Positions 119 through 22,206 of a DNA stretch of 28,286 nt are shown piece by piece. This DNA is from an uncultured Pseudomonadales bacterium (GTDB taxonomy: Bacteria; Pseudomonadota; Gammaproteobacteria; Pseudomonadales; Pseudohongiellaceae), in contig CALKDE010000267.1 in NCBI GenBank assembly GCA_938082955.1, positions 1-28,286 of the forward strand, given 5' to 3'. The notes under the pieces are model-generated. The model worked only from the letters and a program-made list of their open reading frames with translations, was not told the origin of the DNA and did not search any database. Within the stretch, counting starts at the first letter, position 1; each line of letters opens with the position of its first letter. The position numbers and the translations under genes are program-made.

Positions 119-270
119 TATTTGTTCTCCATTATGATTGCCATAGTGTAATCCTTTAAGGCATCAGTTATACTTAATATACAGGCAAGATTAAGCTTGT
201 TTTTCAAGTCTTGCAATGGGTTGTCGGTTACGTCTTTTGGCGGCTGGTTCAACCAGCCCATTGCAAGCAC
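118..270 (-). CDS. Hypothetical 50-aa protein
   Basis: Read manually; GTG start overlaps the TAG of the 878-aa gene and its TAA overlaps the next ATG (TAATG); no recognisable motif. Confidence 0.35.
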   Translation of the reverse strand: MLAMGWLNQPPKDVTDNPLQDLKNKLNLACILSITDALKDYTMAIIMENK

Positions 271-2906
271 TAAATATCAGGCGCTCTGTTCCTATCTTCC
301 CTTAATGCTGCTGTAGTGCCTAGAAGCCCTGCTGTAGCCAATCCATACAAGGGGTGAGTAGCATTAACAAGGCTGTCTCGGACGATATCATCTGGGCTCT
401 TGCCAGTGACCCGCGCTGTTCTCTCGATTGCCTCATTAACGTGCTCGATCATCGGCTTGCCGTCAGTACCTTTAGAGCCAGCCCATGCCACATCTTGGAA
501 GTTCATAGGGTCTACACCTATTTCAGCAGCAACCTCGTCTAAGGTCTGCTCCATGATTCCATACCACCCCTTCTTGGGCGCGTTCAGCTTGGGGTCGTAG
601 AGGTGAGACATCTGCTCATCGATAGTGGCTCGGCTTGAGTCACCCAAAAAGTTGGCAGCAAAATTAAACCGCTTGGGAGATACGGATGCACTTAGCTCTG
701 CGTCTGTGTTGGCAAACTTGTTTGCCATCTTCATGTTGCCACCGATATACCTGCCGCCTTGTGGGTGAGGGATGTCAGTTGAGAGAACGGGGAAGTCAGT
801 AACTCCCTGAACCTCCAGGTAATTGGTATAGGCTGCTGTCAGCAGGTTGGCAGTGGGATCCGCTCCACCAGTGGTCGCCGCCATAGACTCAGCGAACCGC
901 TTTCTAAACATTGCGCGGCCCTCAGTCTCTCCCAGCTCATCAATAAAAGCCTTTTCGAGTTGTCCCATTGAATACCAGTTTCGAGCCATCTCCGAATCGC
1001 CCTTCTCGTATGCCTCCCGCAGCCTAGTCTTGATGTCTTTGGTGTTTAGCAGTTCGGTATGCTCATCAATCTTAGCCTGTGTTTTGTAAACGGAGTCAGT
1101 GAGCGTGTTTCCCTGGATGTCATAGTTACTGGGGTCTACATCAAACCTCTCATTAAGAGGGAAAAACGGGTCATAGTTGCCGGCCTTGATGTCATCTTGG
1201 GCCGCATTGCGAGCCTGTTGAACCGCTCTCTCTTCTGGGGATAAGTCCTTGCTTACAAAATAGTTAGGCTTGCCATCCTCTCCTATTAAATTCCCATCTT
1301 CTGCCCTGTTGTTCTTCACCCCCATGTTTCCAATACCTCTTTCTTGCGGGTATCTATTAGCTATTTCTGCTGGATCGTAGGTGTTTTCTGGCTTAGGTAG
1401 ATTCCCTTCTCTGTAGAGCCTATACCTCTCTGCAGCAGAAGCGCCAGGGTTGCCACCCCCACCCATCATCTCACTCACCGCAGCCTCTCGCTGCACTGGG
1501 GTCAGCACCTCACCGTTGCGAGTCTTTATGTCTATTAGAGAGTCATCAAATATGACAAAGTTGCGGGTCGATGGCGTGAGTGTATCCCTGAGCTGTTGCT
1601 CATACGCCGCTTTGTTTTTGGGAGTATCATGGTATCCGCGCATTGTGTCAGCTATTACTGCCTCCACATCATTGCCATGCTTATCCATTAATCTTTGCAG
1701 CTTGGTGTCTACAACGCTTTTCGGTCTGCTAGAGCCGTCTAGGTAGCGTATGCCGGGGATGCCCTTCTCATTTAAAAATTTCGAGGCTTCTTCTGCACTG
1801 GTAAAATAATCACCCAAATTGTCATAAGCCTGTGCGCCAGTGTAATCAGCCCATGACTCTTGTGGGGTTAGCCATTTATCTCCCCTGCCGCTGGATACAG
1901 CCAGTTCATCCAACAAGTCTTGCATTTTTTTATTGACCGGAGCATCCCAATCAAGAAGGTCGTCGGGGGATACCTTTAGGTCTACGTTGTAGAGGGTTGG
2001 CTCGACAGGCATCACCATTCTGTCCGTGGCTTTGATTACCTCTGGGTCTTGTGCCGCCTTTAATATTCCCTGTATATCAACACCGTCAGGCTGTTCAAGG
2101 GTATAACCTCCCTCGTCAATCTCTTTAACCATGAAATCGTAAAGACTTTCTTTTTTGGGGTCGTAGCCGCCCTCATAGGCCCAATTGACCATGTATTCAG
2201 AGTTTTGGAAGTCTGTATGAGGGGAAACTGCGCGATTCACATCATCCATAGCGCCCTGATAAGCATTCATGTCATCGCCAAGAACTTTGGCATAATTCTC
2301 AGAGACACTTTTATTCTCAGCAAAGTACAGACCATGACCATAAGCCTGTGCGCCCTCGCCTGTGCCTATCCGACTCATTGAGAAGGCATCGAACTTGTGC
2401 GGGGAGCCATGCCAAGCGTCAATGTTTTTGCGGATAATAGGCAGCATTGCAGCCATTGAGGGGGAGATTGATACCGCCCCACCCGCAACACCCGCGCTAC
2501 TCATCATGGCATTAAACCAAGTCCTAGACTCAGGATCGGTTATGTACATCTCTATGTCAGCAGCAAGGCCAGTAATGTCACCAAGGCCATTAACGCCCAT
2601 AGTGAGGAATGCCGCTTTTTGGGTAGGAGTCAGACCCTGAGTTACCATGTCTGTAAAATTGCGAACTTCTTGAAACTTGTTATCTAGTGCAGCCTTGAGC
2701 TGGGCTGGATTGTTTAGCTCACCCTCATCGTTTATTGCAACATCTGCAATCTGGTTGCCAATTCCAGAAAGAACTCCCTGCACCCTGTCATCAAAGGCGT
2801 TCTGTTTATTAACGCGAGATTGAATCCCTGCTGTAGCTTGTGGCTGGCTTTGTTGCGCGATACGCATTAAGCCCATACCTTTGATGTTAACCAGAACATC
2901 AGGCAC
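270..2906 (-). CDS. Large multidomain (polyvalent-type) protein: ADP-ribosyltransferase-like domain plus C-terminal HhH-GPD/Ogg-like domain
   Basis: HGSPHKFDAF...GTGEGAQAYGHGLYFAE, LYNV...LLDWD, GIPGIRYLD, NFVIFDD (ART-like); K-x17-D in PKRFNFAANFLGDSSRATID followed by YGIMEQ..AAEIG...QDVAW; GTG start overlaps the portal stop, GGAG upstream. Confidence 0.7.
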   Translation of the reverse strand: MPDVLVNIKGMGLMRIAQQSQPQATAGIQSRVNKQNAFDDRVQGVLSGIGNQIADVAINDEGELNNPAQLKAALDNKFQEVRNFTDMVTQGLTPTQKAAFLTMGVNGLGDITGLAADIEMYITDPESRTWFNAMMSSAGVAGGAVSISPSMAAMLPIIRKNIDAWHGSPHKFDAFSMSRIGTGEGAQAYGHGLYFAENKSVSENYAKVLGDDMNAYQGAMDDVNRAVSPHTDFQNSEYMVNWAYEGGYDPKKESLYDFMVKEIDEGGYTLEQPDGVDIQGILKAAQDPEVIKATDRMVMPVEPTLYNVDLKVSPDDLLDWDAPVNKKMQDLLDELAVSSGRGDKWLTPQESWADYTGAQAYDNLGDYFTSAEEASKFLNEKGIPGIRYLDGSSRPKSVVDTKLQRLMDKHGNDVEAVIADTMRGYHDTPKNKAAYEQQLRDTLTPSTRNFVIFDDSLIDIKTRNGEVLTPVQREAAVSEMMGGGGNPGASAAERYRLYREGNLPKPENTYDPAEIANRYPQERGIGNMGVKNNRAEDGNLIGEDGKPNYFVSKDLSPEERAVQQARNAAQDDIKAGNYDPFFPLNERFDVDPSNYDIQGNTLTDSVYKTQAKIDEHTELLNTKDIKTRLREAYEKGDSEMARNWYSMGQLEKAFIDELGETEGRAMFRKRFAESMAATTGGADPTANLLTAAYTNYLEVQGVTDFPVLSTDIPHPQGGRYIGGNMKMANKFANTDAELSASVSPKRFNFAANFLGDSSRATIDEQMSHLYDPKLNAPKKGWYGIMEQTLDEVAAEIGVDPMNFQDVAWAGSKGTDGKPMIEHVNEAIERTARVTGKSPDDIVRDSLVNATHPLYGLATAGLLGTTAALREDRNRAPDI

Positions 2907-5091
2907 TTCGGGACAACTCCCCTGTCATTGGGTCATATTCAAAGGTTGGTTCTTGTCGAACAGGGGCAGGTTTTGATCTAGACCTAAATCTATCGCCCAT
3001 CTTCTCCATCGTGTCTGCTTTGACATCCATCGTCTTCGCCTGGGTGAACTCGATGTTAACGCCAGCCTCGGCAGCATCAACCTCTACTGAATTGCGATCA
3101 GTCTCAGCCCTAAAGGCATCAATCTGGAGCTTGCCCTGGTCGTTCTGAGCCCTGGCCTGATCACTCATGCTCATACGCTGTTCGCGCATCATCTGAGCCT
3201 CTGCCTTGCCCTGCTCTGCCATCGCCAGGACCATAGCCGGATCAGGTTCCTGCTCCTTATTGGCCGCCTGCTCCATAAAGGCAATATCCTCATCAGTTGT
3301 GGGCTCCTTAAATCCACCCAACAGTAACTGCTTGTTGCCGTAGTCACGGATGTCATCAAGGTCCACACCATCGATCAGCATCAGACCCTTCAACGAGAGG
3401 GCTCTGTGCATCTGTGGATCCGTAGCGGCAAACTGATTAGCCAATTCGCGCAATTCAACTCGCGTCTTTTCTTTTTTACTCGTGTACGAATGCCCAACTT
3501 CAGCAAACACCTCGAACTCTTGGTTGGTCAGGTCATTCAGGACAACTAACTCACCGGACTCCTTGTCCAAGATTGTCTCCATTATCTCTACTGACTCGCG
3601 TTCACCATCTGGTCTGGTGACTGTCACCTTCCGCGGTGAGTCGAAGATAATCGATGACATGCCTGCATAGATCACAGCATCCCATCGCTTGGCGAATTTT
3701 AGATTCTGCTGATAGACAACCGACTGCATGTCAAACTCGGCCCTCATCTGCTCCATCGCATAGCCCGACATCGCTGGGTCAGCAAAATTGTCAGGAAGGC
3801 CTGGGTCAGCTACATCCTTCACAGCTTCTCTGGTCTCTGCCGCTAGATCGCGCATCCCTTGAGGTAGGTCTGCCGTAGGCATCATCCCTGCCGGACCCAT
3901 AGGCAGATCAGCGCCAGAGGCATCCTTACGCTGCTGCAGATAATACGGGTAGTTGTTGTCGGCGCCAGTCTCCTCGTACATAGACTCGAACCCAGCAATC
4001 TGCTCAGGAAAGAATATAGGCTTAGGACGAGGCGATCGGCTAACAATGTCAGCCAGATAGGACAGCATAAAGTTTCTGAGACGCTGTGGATCCTTGGCAA
4101 GACGGACAACGCCCTCCCAAATTTCCTCGCCCTCTACGAATGTGTGCTCCCCGTAGGTGTGGACAACCGGAATGTGAGTGCCTGGAACGTCCTCTACCTT
4201 CAGAATCTCCTCACCGGATGCAATGTACCGCTTAACCTGCCATCTCTTAATAGACTTCTCAGAGACTATCTCGTAGCCCTGCTCGATGAGCTCGTCCATG
4301 ATCGACACATCAGAGTTCTCTCCGGCCTTCATCAGATCAGACTCGCGCAGCAGTAGCTCTTGGCCCATCGGGTCAGCGAATGTCAGAACCTTGTCTTTGA
4401 TCTTAGTGCGATGATAGAAGCGAACAATGTAGAACAACTGGTTCTGGCCGGAGATCCACGGAAAGGTGTAGCTCTGCTCTGGACTGGAAAAATTAGCTGG
4501 GGCGCCGGTAGTAGTATTTCCAGTTAACTCCTCGTAGAGCTCTTGATATCCATCCTTAGTGAATGGCTCAAGGATGCTCCAATTACGAGCATCAGACTTG
4601 TCCAGGCTCTTCGCGTTCGCGTCAGGGAAGCTGTTGTTATTAGCCTCGTAGATTGGCCTGCGGCGAATAACCTGATTCCGGTCACCTGCATTGTTCGTCT
4701 GGTACTCAGTAAATAGCTCCCACCCGCCGACTCCACAATCCACGCATTCTAGTGCCGCATTATCATAAGACTCTAGTGTGCTGTTGCGTCTGTCTTCGGT
4801 TAGATAGAGGCCATCAATGAGCTCTGCCCCATCATCGCGCTCGTCATCAAGCGGGACAAAGTCTATCTGGATAGGGTTAGACCTGAGATCCGCGATAATC
4901 TTTCGGGTAGCCTTGCGAATAAGGTTGAACTCGCCGCGATACTGAAGTTGGCTATCGCTTAATAAACCATCGTCCCATTGACTAACACGAGAAAATACGC
5001 GGTCATCAGCAGCTCGTTCACGGGTAACTTGATTTGCCTGAAAGTTTTGATCATGCAGGCGCTTCAACTCTTCAAGAGTAAGATCGGCCAT
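2899..5091 (-). CDS. Portal protein, P22 gp1 family
   Basis: FSRVSQWDD, LQYRG(E)F, NQVIRRRPI, LDKSDAR, EGVVRLAKDPQRLRN, FPEQIAGFESMY match P22 portal segments; 730 aa. Confidence 0.95.
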   Translation of the reverse strand: MADLTLEELKRLHDQNFQANQVTRERAADDRVFSRVSQWDDGLLSDSQLQYRGEFNLIRKATRKIIADLRSNPIQIDFVPLDDERDDGAELIDGLYLTEDRRNSTLESYDNAALECVDCGVGGWELFTEYQTNNAGDRNQVIRRRPIYEANNNSFPDANAKSLDKSDARNWSILEPFTKDGYQELYEELTGNTTTGAPANFSSPEQSYTFPWISGQNQLFYIVRFYHRTKIKDKVLTFADPMGQELLLRESDLMKAGENSDVSIMDELIEQGYEIVSEKSIKRWQVKRYIASGEEILKVEDVPGTHIPVVHTYGEHTFVEGEEIWEGVVRLAKDPQRLRNFMLSYLADIVSRSPRPKPIFFPEQIAGFESMYEETGADNNYPYYLQQRKDASGADLPMGPAGMMPTADLPQGMRDLAAETREAVKDVADPGLPDNFADPAMSGYAMEQMRAEFDMQSVVYQQNLKFAKRWDAVIYAGMSSIIFDSPRKVTVTRPDGERESVEIMETILDKESGELVVLNDLTNQEFEVFAEVGHSYTSKKEKTRVELRELANQFAATDPQMHRALSLKGLMLIDGVDLDDIRDYGNKQLLLGGFKEPTTDEDIAFMEQAANKEQEPDPAMVLAMAEQGKAEAQMMREQRMSMSDQARAQNDQGKLQIDAFRAETDRNSVEVDAAEAGVNIEFTQAKTMDVKADTMEKMGDRFRSRSKPAPVRQEPTFEYDPMTGELSRSA

Positions 5092-5466: not shown

Positions 5467-6561
5467 TTAAGGTACAGGCTTCGTACTGGGATAATAAACA
5501 TTCAGCCATGGAGTAATGTTTTCAACTATCGCCAGAGAGTTATCAACGCCTGAGAATGATGCTCCAAACCCTGTTCCGGATGGTATGATTGCAGGGTCAG
5601 CCAGCTTAACCAGCGCCCCAGAACCGAAGTCATAAACTGCCATCCACGGTGTGTTGGAATGCGCTACAGCTAAGTATCTATTATCCAGAGACCATCCAAC
5701 TCCTCTGCCTGTGCTTGCTGGAAGTGAAACAGGGTCAGCAACCTTAGTGAAGACGTCACCGCTTCTGGAGTAGACAGTTATAAACGGGGTTGTAGTATGA
5801 GCGACAGCAAGAAGCGTACCATCTGGAGACCAAGCAACCGCATTGCCAGTGCCTGCCGGGAGAGATGCTGGGTTGGCAAGTTTGACAAATGAATCCCCGG
5901 TTCGCTTGTAGATGCTCACGAATGGCGAGACGCTGTGACTAATGGCTAGATAAATTCCATCAGGGCTAAAAGCTGTACCCGAACAGTTGCCAGTTGGAAT
6001 TGTTGCCGGATTAGTGAGCTTGGTTAATACGTCACCAGCTCGCTTATAAATCTGCATATACGGCGATGTGGTTATATTTACAGCTGACAGATAGACACCA
6101 TCTTCTGAGAAGGAGACAGCCCTGGTTGCCCCAACAGGCAGAACCGCAGGATCGGCAATCTTAGTTAGCACATCACCGACTCTGTTATAAACCAACACAA
6201 ATGGCGTAGCGTCAGAAGCAACCGCAACACTAGACGAGTCTCCGTTCCAGCCTACTCCTCTTATTCTGGCCGTAGGCAAGGTCGCGGGATCGGCAATCTT
6301 GGTCATAGTAAAACCATCGACTTTGTATGCCGAAAAGTACGGGGTAGTATCGTGCCCTACTCCGATCAATGTGGCATCAGGTGACCAAGCAACGCCGCGA
6401 GATGTGCCTCCGGGTAACGTGGCAGGATTAGCCAGTTTCCCACCAAGCAAAGGGATCCCTGGGCTGACAGGAGCTGGCCCATCTGGTGAGCCTATAGGTG
6501 ATATCAATGCAGTCGATAAGGGCGATACAAGAACATCAGAAGAGAATCTACGGAATGTCAT
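5467..6561 (-). CDS. Seven-bladed WD40-like beta-propeller protein
   Basis: Seven ~46-aa repeats K(L/I)A(D/N)PAxLPxG...xAWSPDGxxLAVAH..TPFx.VY after a Pro/Ser-rich N-terminal arm; ATG at 6561 just after the terL stop. Confidence 0.85.
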   Translation of the reverse strand: MTFRRFSSDVLVSPLSTALISPIGSPDGPAPVSPGIPLLGGKLANPATLPGGTSRGVAWSPDATLIGVGHDTTPYFSAYKVDGFTMTKIADPATLPTARIRGVGWNGDSSSVAVASDATPFVLVYNRVGDVLTKIADPAVLPVGATRAVSFSEDGVYLSAVNITTSPYMQIYKRAGDVLTKLTNPATIPTGNCSGTAFSPDGIYLAISHSVSPFVSIYKRTGDSFVKLANPASLPAGTGNAVAWSPDGTLLAVAHTTTPFITVYSRSGDVFTKVADPVSLPASTGRGVGWSLDNRYLAVAHSNTPWMAVYDFGSGALVKLADPAIIPSGTGFGASFSGVDNSLAIVENITPWLNVYYPSTKPVP

Positions 6562-6569
6562 CAATAGGC

Positions 6570-9829: not shown

Positions 9830-11041
9830 ATGCTGAAGGTTCTTGATCTTTTTAGCGGAATAGGAGGATTTTCACTAGGACTAGAGCGTACTGGAGGCTT
9901 TGAGACAGTAGCCTTTTGCGAGATAGAGAAGTATCCGCAGCAGGTATTAGCAAAACACTGGCCTGGAGTACCAATTTACAATGACGTTATGGAGCTAACG
10001 AATGAGCGACTCAAAGCAGATGGGATTTTTCCCAATGTCATCACCGGAGGATTCCCATGTCAGGATATCTCCGTTGCAGGCAAACAAAAGGGCATTGGTG
10101 AAGGCACAAGGTCGGGCCTCTGGTCGGAGTGCGCCCGTCTTGTTGGGGAGATTCGACCCAGATACGCAATCTTTGAAAACGTCACAGCACTCCTTTCTGG
10201 AGCAGACGGGAAATGGTTTGAGCGAGTTCTCTGGGACATATCCCAGATCGGGGGCTATGTCGTTGAATGGCACTGTATACCAGCTTCCCAACTTGGCGCT
10301 CACCACCACAGAGATAGGGTCTGGATCATATTACGCAACACCGACAGTGAACGACTCAAAGAATTCAACCTTACCTCCATCTCAAGGAAAGAGAAGCAGC
10401 CTAGTGGGGGATATGATAAGAGAAAGGGAAATGCTCCCGACACCAACGACAAGCGATCAGTACAGCGCCTCATCACCGGAGTATCTGGAGAAAAAGGGTC
10501 GCAACCCAATGACCAACCAATTGAGGGACGCGGTGAGATATGTAGAGGAAAGGAAGCCAATAGAATACTGGCCAACACCGACAGCGGCAGAAGCGAACAA
10601 GATTCTAGCTTGTGCAAACTACGGCCAAGTGGGACTAAACAACAATCCAAGAATCCGGGGTCTACCGACCAGACCGAAAAAGGAAAAGAGCGGGAAGAAA
10701 CTATTTCCAACTCCAACGGCGCGGGACTGGAAAGGCGGTTACAACACGAAATCTCTTACCAGGAAGGATGGGAAATCCAGAGCAATGGACGCATTGCCGA
10801 ATGCGATACTGGAAGGGAAAGGCACAGAGACGGTATCTGGGCAATTGAACCCTCAATTTGTGGAATGGCTGATGGGCTATCCGATGGAGTATACGAAGGT
10901 CGAGTGACAACCGGCGTGAAAGATCGCGCAAAGCGTCTTAAAACACTAGGCAACTCAGTAGTTCCTCAGATTCCAGAGCTAATAGGCAGGGCCATACTAG
11001 AGGCAGAAAATTGCACCAAATGCGAGGGAGGAAACCCATGA
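9830..11041 (+). CDS. DNA cytosine-C5 methyltransferase, alpha polypeptide (motifs I-VIII and X, no motif IX)
   Basis: LDLFSGIGG (I), GGFPCQDIS (IV), IFENV (VI), HHRDRVWII (VIII), RLKTLGNSVVPQ (X). Confidence 0.92.
   Translation: MLKVLDLFSGIGGFSLGLERTGGFETVAFCEIEKYPQQVLAKHWPGVPIYNDVMELTNERLKADGIFPNVITGGFPCQDISVAGKQKGIGEGTRSGLWSECARLVGEIRPRYAIFENVTALLSGADGKWFERVLWDISQIGGYVVEWHCIPASQLGAHHHRDRVWIILRNTDSERLKEFNLTSISRKEKQPSGGYDKRKGNAPDTNDKRSVQRLITGVSGEKGSQPNDQPIEGRGEICRGKEANRILANTDSGRSEQDSSLCKLRPSGTKQQSKNPGSTDQTEKGKEREETISNSNGAGLERRLQHEISYQEGWEIQSNGRIAECDTGRERHRDGIWAIEPSICGMADGLSDGVYEGRVTTGVKDRAKRLKTLGNSVVPQIPELIGRAILEAENCTKCEGGNP
10002..10907 (+). CDS. Nested beta polypeptide of the C5 methyltransferase (TRD-like repeats plus motif IX) in the +1 frame
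   Basis: 301 codons open inside the alpha gene; own GGAG SD (9991-9994); four (A/P)TPT repeats; C-terminal LNPQFVEWLMGYP; same layout as M.EcoHK31I alpha/beta. Confidence 0.85.
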   Translation: MSDSKQMGFFPMSSPEDSHVRISPLQANKRALVKAQGRASGRSAPVLLGRFDPDTQSLKTSQHSFLEQTGNGLSEFSGTYPRSGAMSLNGTVYQLPNLALTTTEIGSGSYYATPTVNDSKNSTLPPSQGKRSSLVGDMIREREMLPTPTTSDQYSASSPEYLEKKGRNPMTNQLRDAVRYVEERKPIEYWPTPTAAEANKILACANYGQVGLNNNPRIRGLPTRPKKEKSGKKLFPTPTARDWKGGYNTKSLTRKDGKSRAMDALPNAILEGKGTETVSGQLNPQFVEWLMGYPMEYTKVE

Positions 11042-13762: not shown

Positions 13763-14172
13763 GAAGCCTCTCTGTACTGCTCATAAGCCTTCAGGGACGG
13801 CTCGCTCCAAGGTACGCCCTCATCGGACCCATAGGCGTACATCTGCTCGATCAACTCTGAAAACTCCTTTTTGTTCATCTTGCTTGTGCTTGTTGGGATA
13901 ACTACCAGGGATCCCGCTATCCCGTGAACAAATATTTGCGATTTCCATGCTGCAGTGATGATGTGCTTCCAGATTTCGGGCTTGTGCTTTAACCCCATCA
14001 GGACCACATGAGTGGAGAGATCAGTCAGCATGGGCCACATTTTCTTATTCTGCGCCAAAGTTCTAAGGCCATCGGTAGAAAATAGCTCCACCTCATCCAG
14101 GCACACCGCCAAGAATTGTGCAGACTGTTCGCACCCGGCGATGAGAGTTCCCTGAATGTTTTTGAATTTCAT
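13759..14172 (-). CDS. ninB: NinB/Orf recombination mediator
   Basis: RTLAQNKKMW.ML.DLS, WK.I.TA, TSKMNKKEFSELIE..YAYG...GV.WS; ATG 14172 overlaps the upstream TGA. Confidence 0.9.
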   Translation of the reverse strand: MKFKNIQGTLIAGCEQSAQFLAVCLDEVELFSTDGLRTLAQNKKMWPMLTDLSTHVVLMGLKHKPEIWKHIITAAWKSQIFVHGIAGSLVVIPTSTSKMNKKEFSELIEQMYAYGSDEGVPWSEPSLKAYEQYREAS

Positions 14173-14909
14173 TTCCCTGCCTCGATGTCCTGCTCTGCCA
14201 ATTCGCAAAATATCCCGCACTCAACGGCCATTTCAGAGGGATAATGTCCAGCTTTTGGATCAAGATCATGTAGATATAATGGCGAAGAATCAGCATTTTT
14301 CAATACCGTATACCCTTTTTCCTTTTCAAAGTCTGCCATCCTCTTGAATACCTCTGGATGAACTTCGCGGGTCTTGTTCCAATATCCCTGACCGCCTTTC
14401 ACACAACCCAAACAATTATTATTCCTAAAACCCAACTTATATTGCATTGGCAAATCAATCCCCGCATTAGCAAGTATTCCAAGACAATCTTCTTTTGTTA
14501 ATCCCCTCTCTATCAGGATGGGCCAAACATCTACCTGTGCATTAGCATCAATAAATCTATCAACCCTGTGCAGTTCCTCTACGGTATAGCCGAATACCTG
14601 CCTATCTGTAGGCAGCTCAAACTTTTCCCTTACTTGCTTTTTAAGCGACCGGGTGCAGGGAGAACCGCTTGGTGTCCTCATGTAGTTCTTATCAAAGACA
14701 TTGTAAATAGAGCCTTTGTAGAAATCGTTTTGAAGAATAACAATCTCCTGCCCAAACCATTTCTCACAGTCCTTTAGAAATCGCGCATTGTCTGAATGCT
14801 CTTCTTCGATATGGCAGTAAGCAATAGTAATTGGCTCACCCTCTGATAATGCTAACTTGGTAGCTACAGCAGATGCCGCTCCACACGAAAACCAACTCAC
14901 TGTTCTCAT
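14169..14909 (-). CDS. PAPS-reductase-like PP-loop protein
   Basis: N-terminal VSWFSCGAASA, PCTRSLKK, GYTVEE..R, NNNCLGCVKGG, CGIFC. Confidence 0.75.
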   Translation of the reverse strand: MRTVSWFSCGAASAVATKLALSEGEPITIAYCHIEEEHSDNARFLKDCEKWFGQEIVILQNDFYKGSIYNVFDKNYMRTPSGSPCTRSLKKQVREKFELPTDRQVFGYTVEELHRVDRFIDANAQVDVWPILIERGLTKEDCLGILANAGIDLPMQYKLGFRNNNCLGCVKGGQGYWNKTREVHPEVFKRMADFEKEKGYTVLKNADSSPLYLHDLDPKAGHYPSEMAVECGIFCELAEQDIEAGK

Positions 14910-20089: not shown

Positions 20090-21058
20090 TCAAAACGCAG
20101 CAAACTCTTTGTCGATATTTTCAAGCACAGGATCCCAGTCCTCTCCATCTTTTCTAAATAGCCTCACTGAGTCGTACCACGGCGATGTATTACCTGGCAT
20201 CGCCCAAGTGTAATAGGGCATCTGTGGGATCATTATCCATGTTGGGACTCCCATTGCTGCGCTTAAATGGGCTACCGAAGTGCAGGAGGTAATCATCAAA
20301 TCCATTGACGAGATCAATCCGGCAGTAGCTTCCCAGGTTGCCAAATGGCCGGCTAAGTCAAACTGCGGAAAGTCTAAGTGAAGGTCTGTATCTCTCTGAA
20401 ATGAGTAGAAATCTGCCTTATAATCCCAATCTTCTACAAATTCTTTGATTAGTTTGTAAGGAATCTTTCTAGAGGGCTCTACATCGTTGTTTTGTACGTT
20501 ACCTCCCCACCTGACGCCCACCCTGATACGTCCGCAACTTTCTAGGGTTGGCGTAGCTTTTATGTAAGGTTCGCCTGAGAGCGTCTTGTGAGTGATCCCA
20601 AGGACATAGGACGCAGACATCGCTGGTATCCAATAGTCGTAGTGCAGGTGATCTAGCGCAGAGACGCAGGGGTATCCGTGAGAGGTAAACAGGCCTGCAA
20701 GTGATGGATCACAAAAGATAACGACATTCGCGCCAAGATCACGAAAGTGAGAACAGAAGCGAAAGTTAATAATCTCATCGCCCAGACCGCCCTCCATCCG
20801 CACTACCAAGGTTTTGCCCTGTAGTGGCTCGTCCCGCCAGATTGGACCGGCTATAGGAGGAGATCCAAAAACTTCAATATGTCGGCCTGCGTTTAAACCT
20901 TCCATTCCCTTGAGTAGATCACCATGCCGAATATCGTGCCAGCCTAGATTAAACAGAACACGATTATCGTCTTGGGAAAGGCTCCTCAGTATTTCTTCAG
21001 ACTTTTCTGGAAAACCAGACTTGGAATAGGCCAGCGCCTTATCAAGCGGATCAATCAT
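20090..21058 (-). CDS. TPR-like N-terminus plus GT-B (GT9-like) glycosyltransferase
   Basis: EGGLGDEI..FRF, VGVRWGGN, TAGLISSMDLMITSCTSVAHLSAAMGVPTW, SPWYDSVRLFR. Confidence 0.85.
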   Translation of the reverse strand: MIDPLDKALAYSKSGFPEKSEEILRSLSQDDNRVLFNLGWHDIRHGDLLKGMEGLNAGRHIEVFGSPPIAGPIWRDEPLQGKTLVVRMEGGLGDEIINFRFCSHFRDLGANVVIFCDPSLAGLFTSHGYPCVSALDHLHYDYWIPAMSASYVLGITHKTLSGEPYIKATPTLESCGRIRVGVRWGGNVQNNDVEPSRKIPYKLIKEFVEDWDYKADFYSFQRDTDLHLDFPQFDLAGHLATWEATAGLISSMDLMITSCTSVAHLSAAMGVPTWIMIPQMPYYTWAMPGNTSPWYDSVRLFRKDGEDWDPVLENIDKEFAAF

Positions 21059-22206
21059 CGAATGATAAGGTTTGAAGAATTGGCTGAACTTCCTTTTGTA
21101 TAGGTCGGATAATCGTCAATTTTGATTAAATCATCGTAACTAAGTTCAGCAATACCAAGACCCCACATTCCAGAGGCATTATTCCCAGTGGCCCATAGTT
21201 CACCCGCAGCATTATAAGCAAAAGTGCTTCGATTCGCACAATATACGTTGCTCCAATCGGTCGCTGCGCCAACCTGCACGGGTGAGTTTTTGTTTCCAGG
21301 CAACGGGCCGAGACCCAACTGACCATAGGCGGCATTGCCCCAAGTAAAGATAGTCCCGTCAGTTTTTAAGCCTATCGTGTGCGCCGTCTCGCTAGGCGAT
21401 GGACCTGTTTCAACTTTCGACCAATCAGTTAATGCGCCGATTTGAGTCGGGCTTGATCGGTTTGTAGAATCGCCGACACCTAGCTGTCCAAGATTGTTAT
21501 ACCCCCACGCCCAAAGTGTTCCGTCAGTTTTAACCCCAAAACTAACTTCTGTGCCAGCAGCGACATAGGCCCAGTCAGTTAGTGCGCCGATTTGAATGGG
21601 GCTATCTACTCTGGCAGTTAATCCATTTCCTAGCTGCCCATAATTATTTGTACCCCAGGCCCAAAGGGTTCCGTCAGTTTTTATGGACAGGTTATGTTGA
21701 GTGCCGCATGAAACACTGTAATAATCAGTCGCTACGCCGATTTGCACGGGAGACGATGTGAACACGGGTGCTCCAATATTGCCAAGCTGTCCAGCATTGT
21801 TATACCCCCACGCCCAAAGGGTTCCGTCAGTTTTTATGCACTGAAAAATAGCCCGTCCCGCATTCACTTTCGACCAGTCTGTTAGTGCGCCAACCTGCAC
21901 GGGTGAGCTAACGTCAAGTAGATCGCCCCGCCCATTCATCCCATTTGATGCATCTCCCCACGTCCAGAGCGTATTGTCGGTCCTAATTGCACCAGTTGTG
22001 ACAAAAGTTCCAAAAAGATAACTAGCGGTGGCTAGATCAGACCAGGTGTCCAACGCACCGACCTGGGCCGGAGTAGATATTGTCGTAGTTGTCCCATTTC
22101 CCAACTGACCATAGGTATTATCGCCACAACCGTACAACTCGCCCTGCGTTGAAGGGGGAGCAGAGCCTCCGGCAGCAGCCGCACCCATAAGCCAGAGAAG
22201 ACTCAT
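21055..22206 (-). CDS. RCC1-repeat beta-propeller, likely tail-associated receptor-binding subunit
   Basis: About seven ~50-aa repeats KTDGTLWAWGxNxxGQLG...SPxQIG..TDW. Confidence 0.9.
   Translation of the reverse strand: MSLLWLMGAAAAGGSAPPSTQGELYGCGDNTYGQLGNGTTTTISTPAQVGALDTWSDLATASYLFGTFVTTGAIRTDNTLWTWGDASNGMNGRGDLLDVSSPVQVGALTDWSKVNAGRAIFQCIKTDGTLWAWGYNNAGQLGNIGAPVFTSSPVQIGVATDYYSVSCGTQHNLSIKTDGTLWAWGTNNYGQLGNGLTARVDSPIQIGALTDWAYVAAGTEVSFGVKTDGTLWAWGYNNLGQLGVGDSTNRSSPTQIGALTDWSKVETGPSPSETAHTIGLKTDGTIFTWGNAAYGQLGLGPLPGNKNSPVQVGAATDWSNVYCANRSTFAYNAAGELWATGNNASGMWGLGIAELSYDDLIKIDDYPTYTKGSSANSSNLIIR

Follow-up and report, generated by a model that had tools for sequence, protein, structure and literature searches.

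What kind of protein does an uncultivated P22-type phage encode directly behind its portal gene, and where would that protein act? The gene in question occupies positions 270..2906 on the minus strand of contig CALKDE010000267.1 (assembly GCA_938082955.1, an uncultured Pseudomonadales bacterium; the source metagenome-assembled genome is 65% complete). The EndoIII (endonuclease III) encoded by that genome is similar to the enzymes of Pseudohongiellaceae-like marine gammaproteobacteria. The entire 28,286-bp contig is the window analyzed here, and it is P22-type phage DNA. From a GTG start, the gene encodes an 878-aa modular head-module protein of the polyvalent type, in which an N-terminal lineage-specific module is followed by an ADP-ribosyltransferase (ART) domain and a C-terminal glycosylase-like module. 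We propose, with a probability of roughly 60%, that this is a modular cargo protein of polyvalent type from an uncultivated, P22-like marine podovirus, with ART and N-glycosidase activities. Packaging, injection, both catalytic activities and their targets are steps that we infer from the evidence set out below. The ART half belongs to a known phage domain type and is, taken alone, ordinary; the glycosylase-like module appears to be undescribed, a phage-specific, head-module branch of the HhH-GPD superfamily (HhH, helix-hairpin-helix).

A glycosylase-like fold in the C-terminal module

The C-terminal module spans residues 549-865 (window 312..1262; like every feature of this gene, it is read from the minus strand) and is a domain specific to phages and a distant relative of DUF7178. 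Residues 540-878 were used as the query of an exhaustive HMMER search, which, counted in clusters at 50% identity, returned 709 cluster representatives at E<=1e-3 and 299 at E<=1e-30. The matches always span residues 549-865, and they lie at varied positions in proteins of ~240 to ~2000 aa; the cultured-phage database yielded only five weak ones. Across Pfam, PHROGs and NCBIfam, no named family covers the module besides DUF7178 (PF23802), which stays below threshold: positions 91-187 of its 193-position profile match residues 720-809 at E 2.5e-4 to 1.9e-3, or 18.6-21.5 bits against a cut-off of 27. The same family was hit by 21 of 63 module relatives at E<=0.1 (best 7.4e-6). DUF7178 is thus the sole sequence family that touches the module, and a more distant relative, P0023, links a DUF7178-like domain to the same N-terminus as that of the protein under study. 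In contrast to a true family assignment, however, these matches are sub-gathering and limited to the second half of the profile, the family has no functional annotation, and a literature search found no paper mentioning DUF7178.

An AF2 model of residues 540-878 (pLDDT 91.4, pTM 0.88) is all-helical. When it was compared with 48,161 chains using VIA-align, the best match was the Ogg2 8-oxoguanine glycosylase Tm1821 (3n0u; Z 10.5, rmsd 3.6, 176 of 209 residues), and ranks 2-22 were all occupied by members of the HhH-GPD superfamily, namely QNG1, endonuclease III (EndoIII), OGG1, MagIII, NTHL1, AGOG, MutY, Mag1, ROS1 and AlkA. The first unrelated chain in this list has a Z of 3.5. Foldseek also placed Ogg2 first, with probability 0.99 among PDB entries and 1.00 in AFDB Swiss-Prot (model residues 72-278 against residues 9-207), and HhH-GPD proteins were among the module's matches in the AFDB clusters. 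A search of the ESM Atlas returned an Ogg-HhH cluster at a TM score of 0.65 over the same module residues. The range aligned with Ogg2 3n0u, which the Atlas match shares, defines an HhH-GPD-like glycosylase core at residues 623-819 (model 84-280; window 450..1040). These structure searches recover the two-lobed, all-alpha fold of the superfamily, and in the model two helices flank an HhH-like site. Judged from this model, the module is very probably related in fold to the HhH-GPD glycosylases.

A conserved lysine and aspartate

An earlier note on this DNA, made from the sequence alone, had singled out a Lys and an Asp 18 residues apart, the spacing of K120 and D138 in EndoIII. Both residues are where it put them, K745 at 672..674 and D763 at 618..620. 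In a 63-sequence alignment of the module they are among the 21 invariant columns, and they are kept throughout the ~155 module sequences that could be retrieved (K745 in 155/155, D763 in 156/156). The distant homologue in Microcystis phage MJing1 retains both, again 18 residues apart, and in P0023, where the K, D and Q..W motifs are also kept, the spacing from Lys to Asp is 22 residues. In the model, K745 sits in the first turn of helix 205-214 (helix two of the HhH-like element), and D763 follows that element, just before helix 225-231 at its N-terminus; this is the placement seen in HhH-GPD enzymes. The earlier note had tied its glycosylase proposal to an HhH-GPD fold and to conservation of these two residues, and both were found. 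What does not stand is the 18-residue spacing as an argument in itself, which is not beyond chance: 5 K-x17-D pairs occur in the whole protein and about 4 are expected.

More informative than the spacing is the register of the pair within known glycosylase families. We used a set of 79 full-length Ogg2 proteins obtained by a degenerate motif scan (the 3 that were checked are NCBIfam NF002305 N-glycosylase/DNA lyases) and a set of 20 EndoIII sequences from genomes of the host's phylum. An EndoIII set from the large protein search was dropped because only near-identical sequences were returned, and smaller HhH-GPD paralogues considered as Ogg2 candidates were EndoIII-like and were left unused. 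When the 30-residue segment running from K to D was moved ungapped along each family profile, the best offset against Ogg2 was the catalytic Lys/Asp register (z 4.17, next 2.39), and the best offset against EndoIII was the K120/D138 register (z 3.69, next 2.73). Among the best 30-residue segments of the module, 7 of 8 fall on two colinear diagonals that match both the hhalign alignment and the Foldseek ranges. In hhalign, the module and Ogg2 align with a score of 20.6 (P 0.02-0.04), which 0 of 60 column shuffles reached, and D763, Y782, E786 and W808 are paired with the Asp, Tyr, Glu and Trp of Ogg2. This marginal alignment is consistent with the likeness of the trailing helix to Ogg-type enzymes that had been proposed; its residue pattern is present as well, although it had been quoted approximately and actually reads Y782...E786...A793...G797...Q804...W808. 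Taken together, the model and the register let us equate K745 and D763, with good confidence, with the catalytic Lys and Asp of bifunctional HhH-GPD glycosylases.

Besides K745 (segment 744-749, window 660-677, minus strand), a second Lys, K812 in the motif A-G-x-K (residues 809-815, window 462-482, minus strand), is near-invariant (146/154) and lies near the point at which the module aligns with the Ogg2 C-terminus. In Ogg2, a C-terminal Lys at this end is reported to aid discrimination of 8-oxoguanine, a part that K812 or K817 might play. A register that places A-G-x-K812 on the EndoIII HhH came from an insignificant alignment and was rejected, as the structure ranges, the hhalign alignment with Ogg2 and the sliding comparison agree on K745/D763.

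Ogg2 (Tm1821; NF002305; PF22175, Ogg-HhH) thus resembles the module in being the best structure match in every library, in the Lys-x17-Asp pair, in a Gly at Lys+10, and in colinear profile matches that continue through the C-terminal helices and include the Y, E and W. The two differ in that identity is only ~12-17%, sequence HMMs do not detect the relationship, and the module is acidic rather than basic and lacks the Gly-x-Gly hairpin. The module also has ~75 extra N-terminal and ~45 extra C-terminal residues, and it is found in a phage head-module fusion, whereas Ogg2 is a cellular repair enzyme of ~207 aa. EndoIII and the other PF00730 enzymes share with the module the two-lobed helical fold (Z 5.0-6.8) and the ungapped K120/D138 register, and Asn occurs at Lys+3 and Lys+7 in both EndoIII and the module, as read from two aligned sequences. 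Unlike EndoIII, the module has no Fe-S cluster loop, no PF00730 match and no significant hhalign alignment.

The conserved pair might instead serve fold stability or contact a phosphate in a non-catalytic structural or DNA-anchoring part of the head, analogous to MuF/SPP1 gp7-type proteins or to DNA-binding pre-ejectosome proteins. The gene does lie in the portal-scaffold slot that minor head proteins occupy, the pre-ejectosome proteins of cyanophage A4 grip DNA (PMC12002296), and the catalytic Asp position also N-caps a helix. We nevertheless think this improbable, since the exact pair is invariant in 155-156 sequences and is accompanied by ~20 more invariant columns that line the same region, which is typical of an active site. 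In addition, an acidic domain would be a poor DNA anchor, and the module also occurs in giant polyvalent proteins beside enzymes: in BFVD, large phage proteins combine the fold with SleB, helicase, GNAT, RelA/SpoT and 'large polyvalent protein associated' domains, and stand-alone proteins of roughly 200 aa have it as well. ART domains are also among its neighbours in giant polyvalent proteins, and cultured phages too have stand-alone relatives, as in Salinibacter phage M31CR41-2 and Synechococcus phage S-CBP42. We put the chance that the glycosylase-like module is catalytically active slightly above even.

The ADP-ribosyltransferase domain

Residues 161-470 (1497..2426) form an ART-PolyVal-type domain with helical inserts at about residues 215-300 and 395-445. 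The motifs that had been listed in support of an ART are all present: HGS at 2403-2411 (residues 166-168), GHGLYFA at 2319-2339, LYNV at 1983-1994, GIRY at 1743-1754 and NFVIFD at 1545-1562. Matches to the ART-PolyVal (PF18760) and PARP profiles are below threshold and cover residues 165-214; for PF18760 the match is limited to profile positions 10-56, and the score, where the gathering cut-off is 31.2 bits, is 23.0 for the full-length protein and 26.0 when residues 150-480 are searched by themselves. The Pfam score is weak because two long helical inserts split the domain. In the large protein search, 2370 ART homologues were found, most of them annotated PF18760; hundreds of PF18760-annotated proteins matched at E 1e-26 to 1e-105, and close homologues pass the Pfam threshold (P0005, 55 bits).

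With 54 homologues as input, AF2 modeled residues 150-480 (mean pLDDT 84) as a six-stranded ART core broken by the two inserts. The model's top VIA match, at Z 12.0 over 154 residues (rmsd 4.2), is the cyanophage A4 pre-ejectosome (9k3a, chain B), followed by tankyrase 2 (8.2), an insecticidal ART, diphtheria toxin (7.8), MbcT (7.7), ParT (7.4) and PARP1 (7.4). These matches all cover model residues 7-317 and show an ART fold; Foldseek with the ART model alone gave weak matches. Compared by sequence, the ART profile matched none of the solved structures, A4 gp27 included. Within 9k3a, the closest solved structure to the ART model is residues 1418-1604 of chain B, which is gp27 judging by the residue numbering. 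The text of the A4 pre-ejectosome paper contains no mention of ADP-ribosyl or NAD (PMC12002296), so the presence of an ART-like domain in this solved structure seems to have escaped notice. With homology and fold in agreement, residues ~161-470 are almost certainly an ART, as the earlier note had read them.

The putative active site was examined in ~152-173 aligned domains. The strand-1 His, H166 (2409..2411), is His in 160/173 and Gln in 13, and the strand-2 Tyr of GHGLYFA, Y194 (2325..2327), is kept in 171/172. The slot of the PARP and diphtheria toxin catalytic Glu is filled by N449 (1560..1562; model strand E299-303), which is invariant (152/152). At the end of the same strand lies D454 (1545..1547; 137/152), which may be the strand-5 Asp of the published description: H-Y-D is given there as the residue set of the ART-PolyVal family, which is predicted to modify proteins after injection (PMC5512222). 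The earlier note was right that an Asn replaces the usual Glu. Its further suggestion that the domain may only bind NAD is neither supported nor needed, because the Asn is invariant throughout a family described as H-Y-D; it is a family trait and not the decay of one copy. In sequence homology, ART fold, the His and Tyr of the NAD site and head-module context, the domain resembles ART-PolyVal (PF18760; Tox-ART-HYD2 clade; PMC5512222), and it differs in lying below the Pfam cut-off and in having the invariant Asn in the Glu slot, where the published description is H-Y-D with an Asp that may be D454. A literature search found no assayed ART-PolyVal member.

A shared N-terminus with exchangeable cargo

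The N-terminal lineage-specific module (residues 1-160; 2427..2906) matches no Pfam family and is common to only 17 proteins, some of which have other cargo behind it. In P0004 this N-terminus is followed, as here, by an ART and a glycosylase-like module. P0005 (776 aa, on a 38.8-kb JGI contig), which is the nearest relative when the N-terminus and first ART are compared (84% identity), has a second ART-PolyVal domain at residues 459-605 in place of the glycosylase-like module, and P0023 has the DUF7178-like domain and no ART. Within the module lies a conserved tag motif (GDITGLAADIEMYITDPESR..., residues 108-130; 2517..2585), which is present in P0023; this tag of ~20 residues reaches even the ART protein of a more distant phage, contig L055. 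Scanning IMG/VR for the tag gave 30 viral contigs, 25 with tag and ART and 5 with tag and no ART, and ART and glycosylase-like module occur together in 1 of the 30. In all 25 contigs in which the upstream region is present, the portal gene lies immediately upstream of the tag gene. We infer that residues 1-160 are the part that directs incorporation into the capsid. A predicted complex of the portal with residues 1-160 scored 0.00 with the partner poorly folded, and is uninformative either way.

Between the tag and the ART lies an Ala/Gly/Ser-rich hydrophobic stretch (residues 133-158; 2433..2510, from hydropathy). Over 19-residue windows, the hydropathy of the protein peaks here (mean 1.6), and the character of the stretch is conserved in homologues; it may serve as a flexible linker or, as such segments do in ejection proteins, act on membranes.

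The head operon and probable packaging

The gene stands directly after terS-terL-portal. Its upstream partner encodes a P22-type portal protein (2899..5091, minus strand, 730 aa; PF16510 E 4.7e-112; phrog_156), and the two genes overlap by 8 nt (GTGCCTGA, 2899..2906), from the portal stop codon into the start of the gene, which bears out the coupling to the portal that had been described. The sequence GGGGAG is located 10 nt upstream of the GTG, and the start is supported by homologues that share the same first residues. In the open reading frame list, this is the sole long frame across the interval. We looked for a consensus promoter or terminator on the minus strand between the portal and this gene and found none.

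The position behind the portal recurs in relatives. The P0004 locus has the order portal, P0004, a Cpn10-like gene and the capsid gene, and P0005 also occupies the post-portal slot. In L055, an ENA metagenome contig with a P22 coat gene, the order is portal, a 175-aa gene, a 412-aa ART, the module protein P0130, scaffold and coat. There the genes for ART-PolyVal (412 aa) and P0130 (491 aa) are adjacent and overlap at stop and start (L055:1778-4491), and the ART protein aligns with the ART family at an hhalign E of 8e-50; the domains that are fused in the 270..2906 protein are thus neighbours in L055. In MJing1 (OQ540923), portal and a 231-aa gene are followed by a module protein (L178:6407-7921, 504 aa), scaffold and capsid. 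The MJing1 module is interrupted by an insert of ~47 residues with a T-M-D motif on either side, and no paper on the virion content of this phage was found in the literature. Unlike these, a module-only protein on another ENA contig (P0125, 503 aa; L053:661-2970) follows phage lysozyme and staphylococcal-nuclease-like genes rather than a portal.

Polyvalent proteins have been modeled as cargo that travels in the capsid (PMC5512222). The 270..2906 protein has two distinct enzyme-type domains behind an N-terminal module and is encoded beside virion and packaging genes. Its post-portal synteny, its swapped cargo and its match to the A4 pre-ejectosome fit that model (PMC5512222), and they agree with the earlier suggestion of a morphogenesis-operon protein that is possibly packaged. 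Comparable arrangements, in which a head-module gene encodes an effector behind a capsid-targeting part, are T4 Alt, the MuF/SPP1 gp7 fusions and cyanophage A4 gp27 (9k3a). They differ from our case in that Alt is an R-S-E ART, that no MuF domain is detectable in the 270..2906 protein, and that the likeness to A4 gp27 is structural only, at 16% identity. From synteny and by analogy with such proteins, we consider the 270..2906 protein probably packaged in the virion.

A protein that stays out of the virion would act late in the infected cell; it might, for instance, modify phage DNA or head proteins as particles are assembled, much as glycosylase-fold phage enzymes build hypermodified bases. 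A phage 5-PmdU glycinyltransferase (8z2m) is indeed a weak VIA match to the module (Z 3.3), the gene lies beside packaging genes, and the DNA-modification genes of the phage include those for a C5 methyltransferase and a PAPS-reductase-like protein. Such a role is nonetheless improbable, as swappable cargo behind a shared N-terminal tag in the post-portal slot is what virion cargo looks like, the ART domain has its nearest structure in a capsid-internal protein, and the module is common in polyvalent proteins that are predicted to be injected (PMC5512222).

Weighing the cargo reading and the substrate of the module

A number of observations weigh against a cargo protein with ART and N-glycosidase activities. 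The grounds for packaging are limited to synteny and analogy, the 29 other tag-bearing proteins lack the glycosylase-like module, and the ART has no catalytic Glu. With the ART query, no ART was detectable in 132 of 154 module proteins; fusions of the two number ~14 besides the 270..2906 product. As the two domains mostly occur apart, obligate cooperation between them is not implied. For the module, the aligner's own notes state that Z values below ~13 are attainable by a common helical arrangement, and the module is all-helical. PF00730 did not match it at E up to 10, and by sequence neither the single sequence nor the 63-sequence profile matched any PDB chain. The reversed-sequence hhalign control against Ogg2 scored 18.8, nearly as high as the real alignment, so that we take the marginal Ogg2 alignment as consistent and not as proof; against the 20 EndoIII sequences, hhalign gave no meaningful alignment. 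The Gly-h-Gly hairpin of the HhH is missing, with S-V-S-P in the module, x-N-P in the consensus and a loop of ~10 residues. Finally, the module's pI of 4.8 (family median 6.4) compares with medians of 9.2-9.3 in Ogg2 and EndoIII, a poor fit to a duplex-DNA enzyme, and the same Lys/Asp pair is found in QNG1, a non-lyase whose substrate is a mononucleotide (PMC9881137).

Some of these points could mean that the glycosylase likeness is a chance helical arrangement joined to a coincidental K-x17-D, and that the function of the module is unrelated; a Z of 10.5 lies inside the chance range for helical models, the spacing is not in excess of expectation, the hhalign score is barely above its reversed control, and Pfam HhH-GPD is silent. 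We regard this as very improbable. The top 22 VIA matches belong to one superfamily with the next at Z 3.5, four libraries concur, the best ungapped offset is the catalytic register in two separately aligned families, and the pair is invariant.

Other points bear on the substrate. The queuosine-5'-monophosphate N-glycosylase QNG1/DUF2419 (7ugk, 7u07) shares with the module the HhH-glycosylase fold and the Lys and Asp, and it shows that HhH-glycosylase chemistry can be directed at a non-DNA substrate (PMC9881137). The module could likewise be an N-glycosidase of a free nucleotide or small molecule and not of DNA, and, once injected, it might destroy a nucleotide used in host immune signalling or a derivative of NAD/ADP-ribose. 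QNG1/DUF2419 entries hold VIA ranks 2-3 with the longest alignments (Z 7.5 and 6.9; 197 and 194 residues), the module is acidic and without the DNA-clamping Gly hairpin, and polyvalent proteins have been proposed to carry signal-degrading enzymes (PMC7824862). However, the DNA enzyme Ogg2 is clearly the better match, at Z 10.5 against 7.5, and is the sole family found by Foldseek; the register signals at the level of sequence point to DNA glycosylases; and QNG1, a cellular salvage enzyme, has beta-hairpin inserts that find no counterpart in the all-helical model. We therefore consider a nucleotide substrate unlikely. The acidity of the module and its lack of the Gly hairpin leave DNA as substrate uncertain, and we hold it tentatively, at somewhat less than even odds.

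Because of the missing hairpin, the absent PF00730 match, the acidic pI and the precedent of QNG1, we assign the module to the HhH-GPD superfamily at the level of fold and active site, as a divergent member closest to Ogg2, and not to the Pfam HhH-GPD family. Published surveys do not anticipate such a member. The polyvalent-protein survey never uses the word glycosylase (PMC5512222), the jumbo-phage survey mentions only T4 endonuclease V-type enzymes (PMC7824862), and literature searches on HhH-GPD with phage virions and on DNA glycosylases with polyvalent proteins returned nothing relevant.

Other features of the gene and contig

A Gly-rich polar linker (residues 471-548; 1263..1496), which matches no family and is shared only with the closest homologues, separates the ART from the C-terminal module. 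Besides the P22-type portal, the contig encodes a gp3-like small terminase, a large terminase, a WD40 propeller gene and a tailspike with a P22 head-binding domain, and genes for P22-like ejection proteins lie at its opposite end. The WD40-like beta-propeller protein is encoded between terL and the portal (window 5467-6564, minus strand), and an RCC1-repeat beta-propeller protein (PF25390, E 3.5e-73; window 21055-22206, minus strand) adjoins the tailspike. Scaffold and coat genes are not seen because the contig ends 270 nt downstream of the 270..2906 gene. That end holds a 50-aa open reading frame at 118-270 and then a small Lys/Arg-rich frame from 117 (minus strand) that runs off the contig, so the phage genome is truncated where scaffold and coat genes are expected. 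The phage also encodes a C5 cytosine DNA methyltransferase (window 9830-11041, plus strand) and a PAPS-reductase-like protein (14169-14909, minus strand).

Discussion

We propose the following course of events for the cargo protein. It would be co-expressed late with the portal from the head operon, enter the procapsid by means of its N-terminal ~160 residues with the tag motif, and be ejected into the host together with the phage DNA. There the ART domain, with H166, Y194 and N449 plus D454, would use NAD+ to modify a host target, and the K745/D763 module would cleave an N-glycosidic bond. In this cleavage D763 would stabilize or attack C1', and K745 would act as a Schiff-base nucleophile or position the ribose. 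The most likely substrate would be a base in DNA, leading to base excision with or without nicking by abasic-site (AP) lyase activity; a nucleotide would be less likely. The ART and the module would act as two independent effectors in the host.

Extended to the whole module family of at least 700 clusters, the proposal would be that these are virion-delivered bifunctional DNA glycosylase/AP-lyases injected with the genome. For the family as a whole we think this doubtful. If it is true, then such enzymes would nick host DNA or excise its bases, or would strip host-imposed adducts from phage DNA, for instance the ADP-ribosylated bases made by DarT-type defences, and in some phages an ART would be their partner, either fused to them or encoded next door. 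Should the phage DNA be modified, an injected glycosylase could, speculatively, discriminate host from phage DNA.

The module is widespread, yet databases list it as a DUF or leave it unannotated. The HhH-GPD assignment, with a defined Lys/Asp pair, makes this anonymous family open to simple testable predictions. Host DNA glycosylases have recently been recognized as antiviral weapons. A glycosylase-type enzyme carried in the phage particle would, if true, be the reverse of that case and a new class of injected effector.

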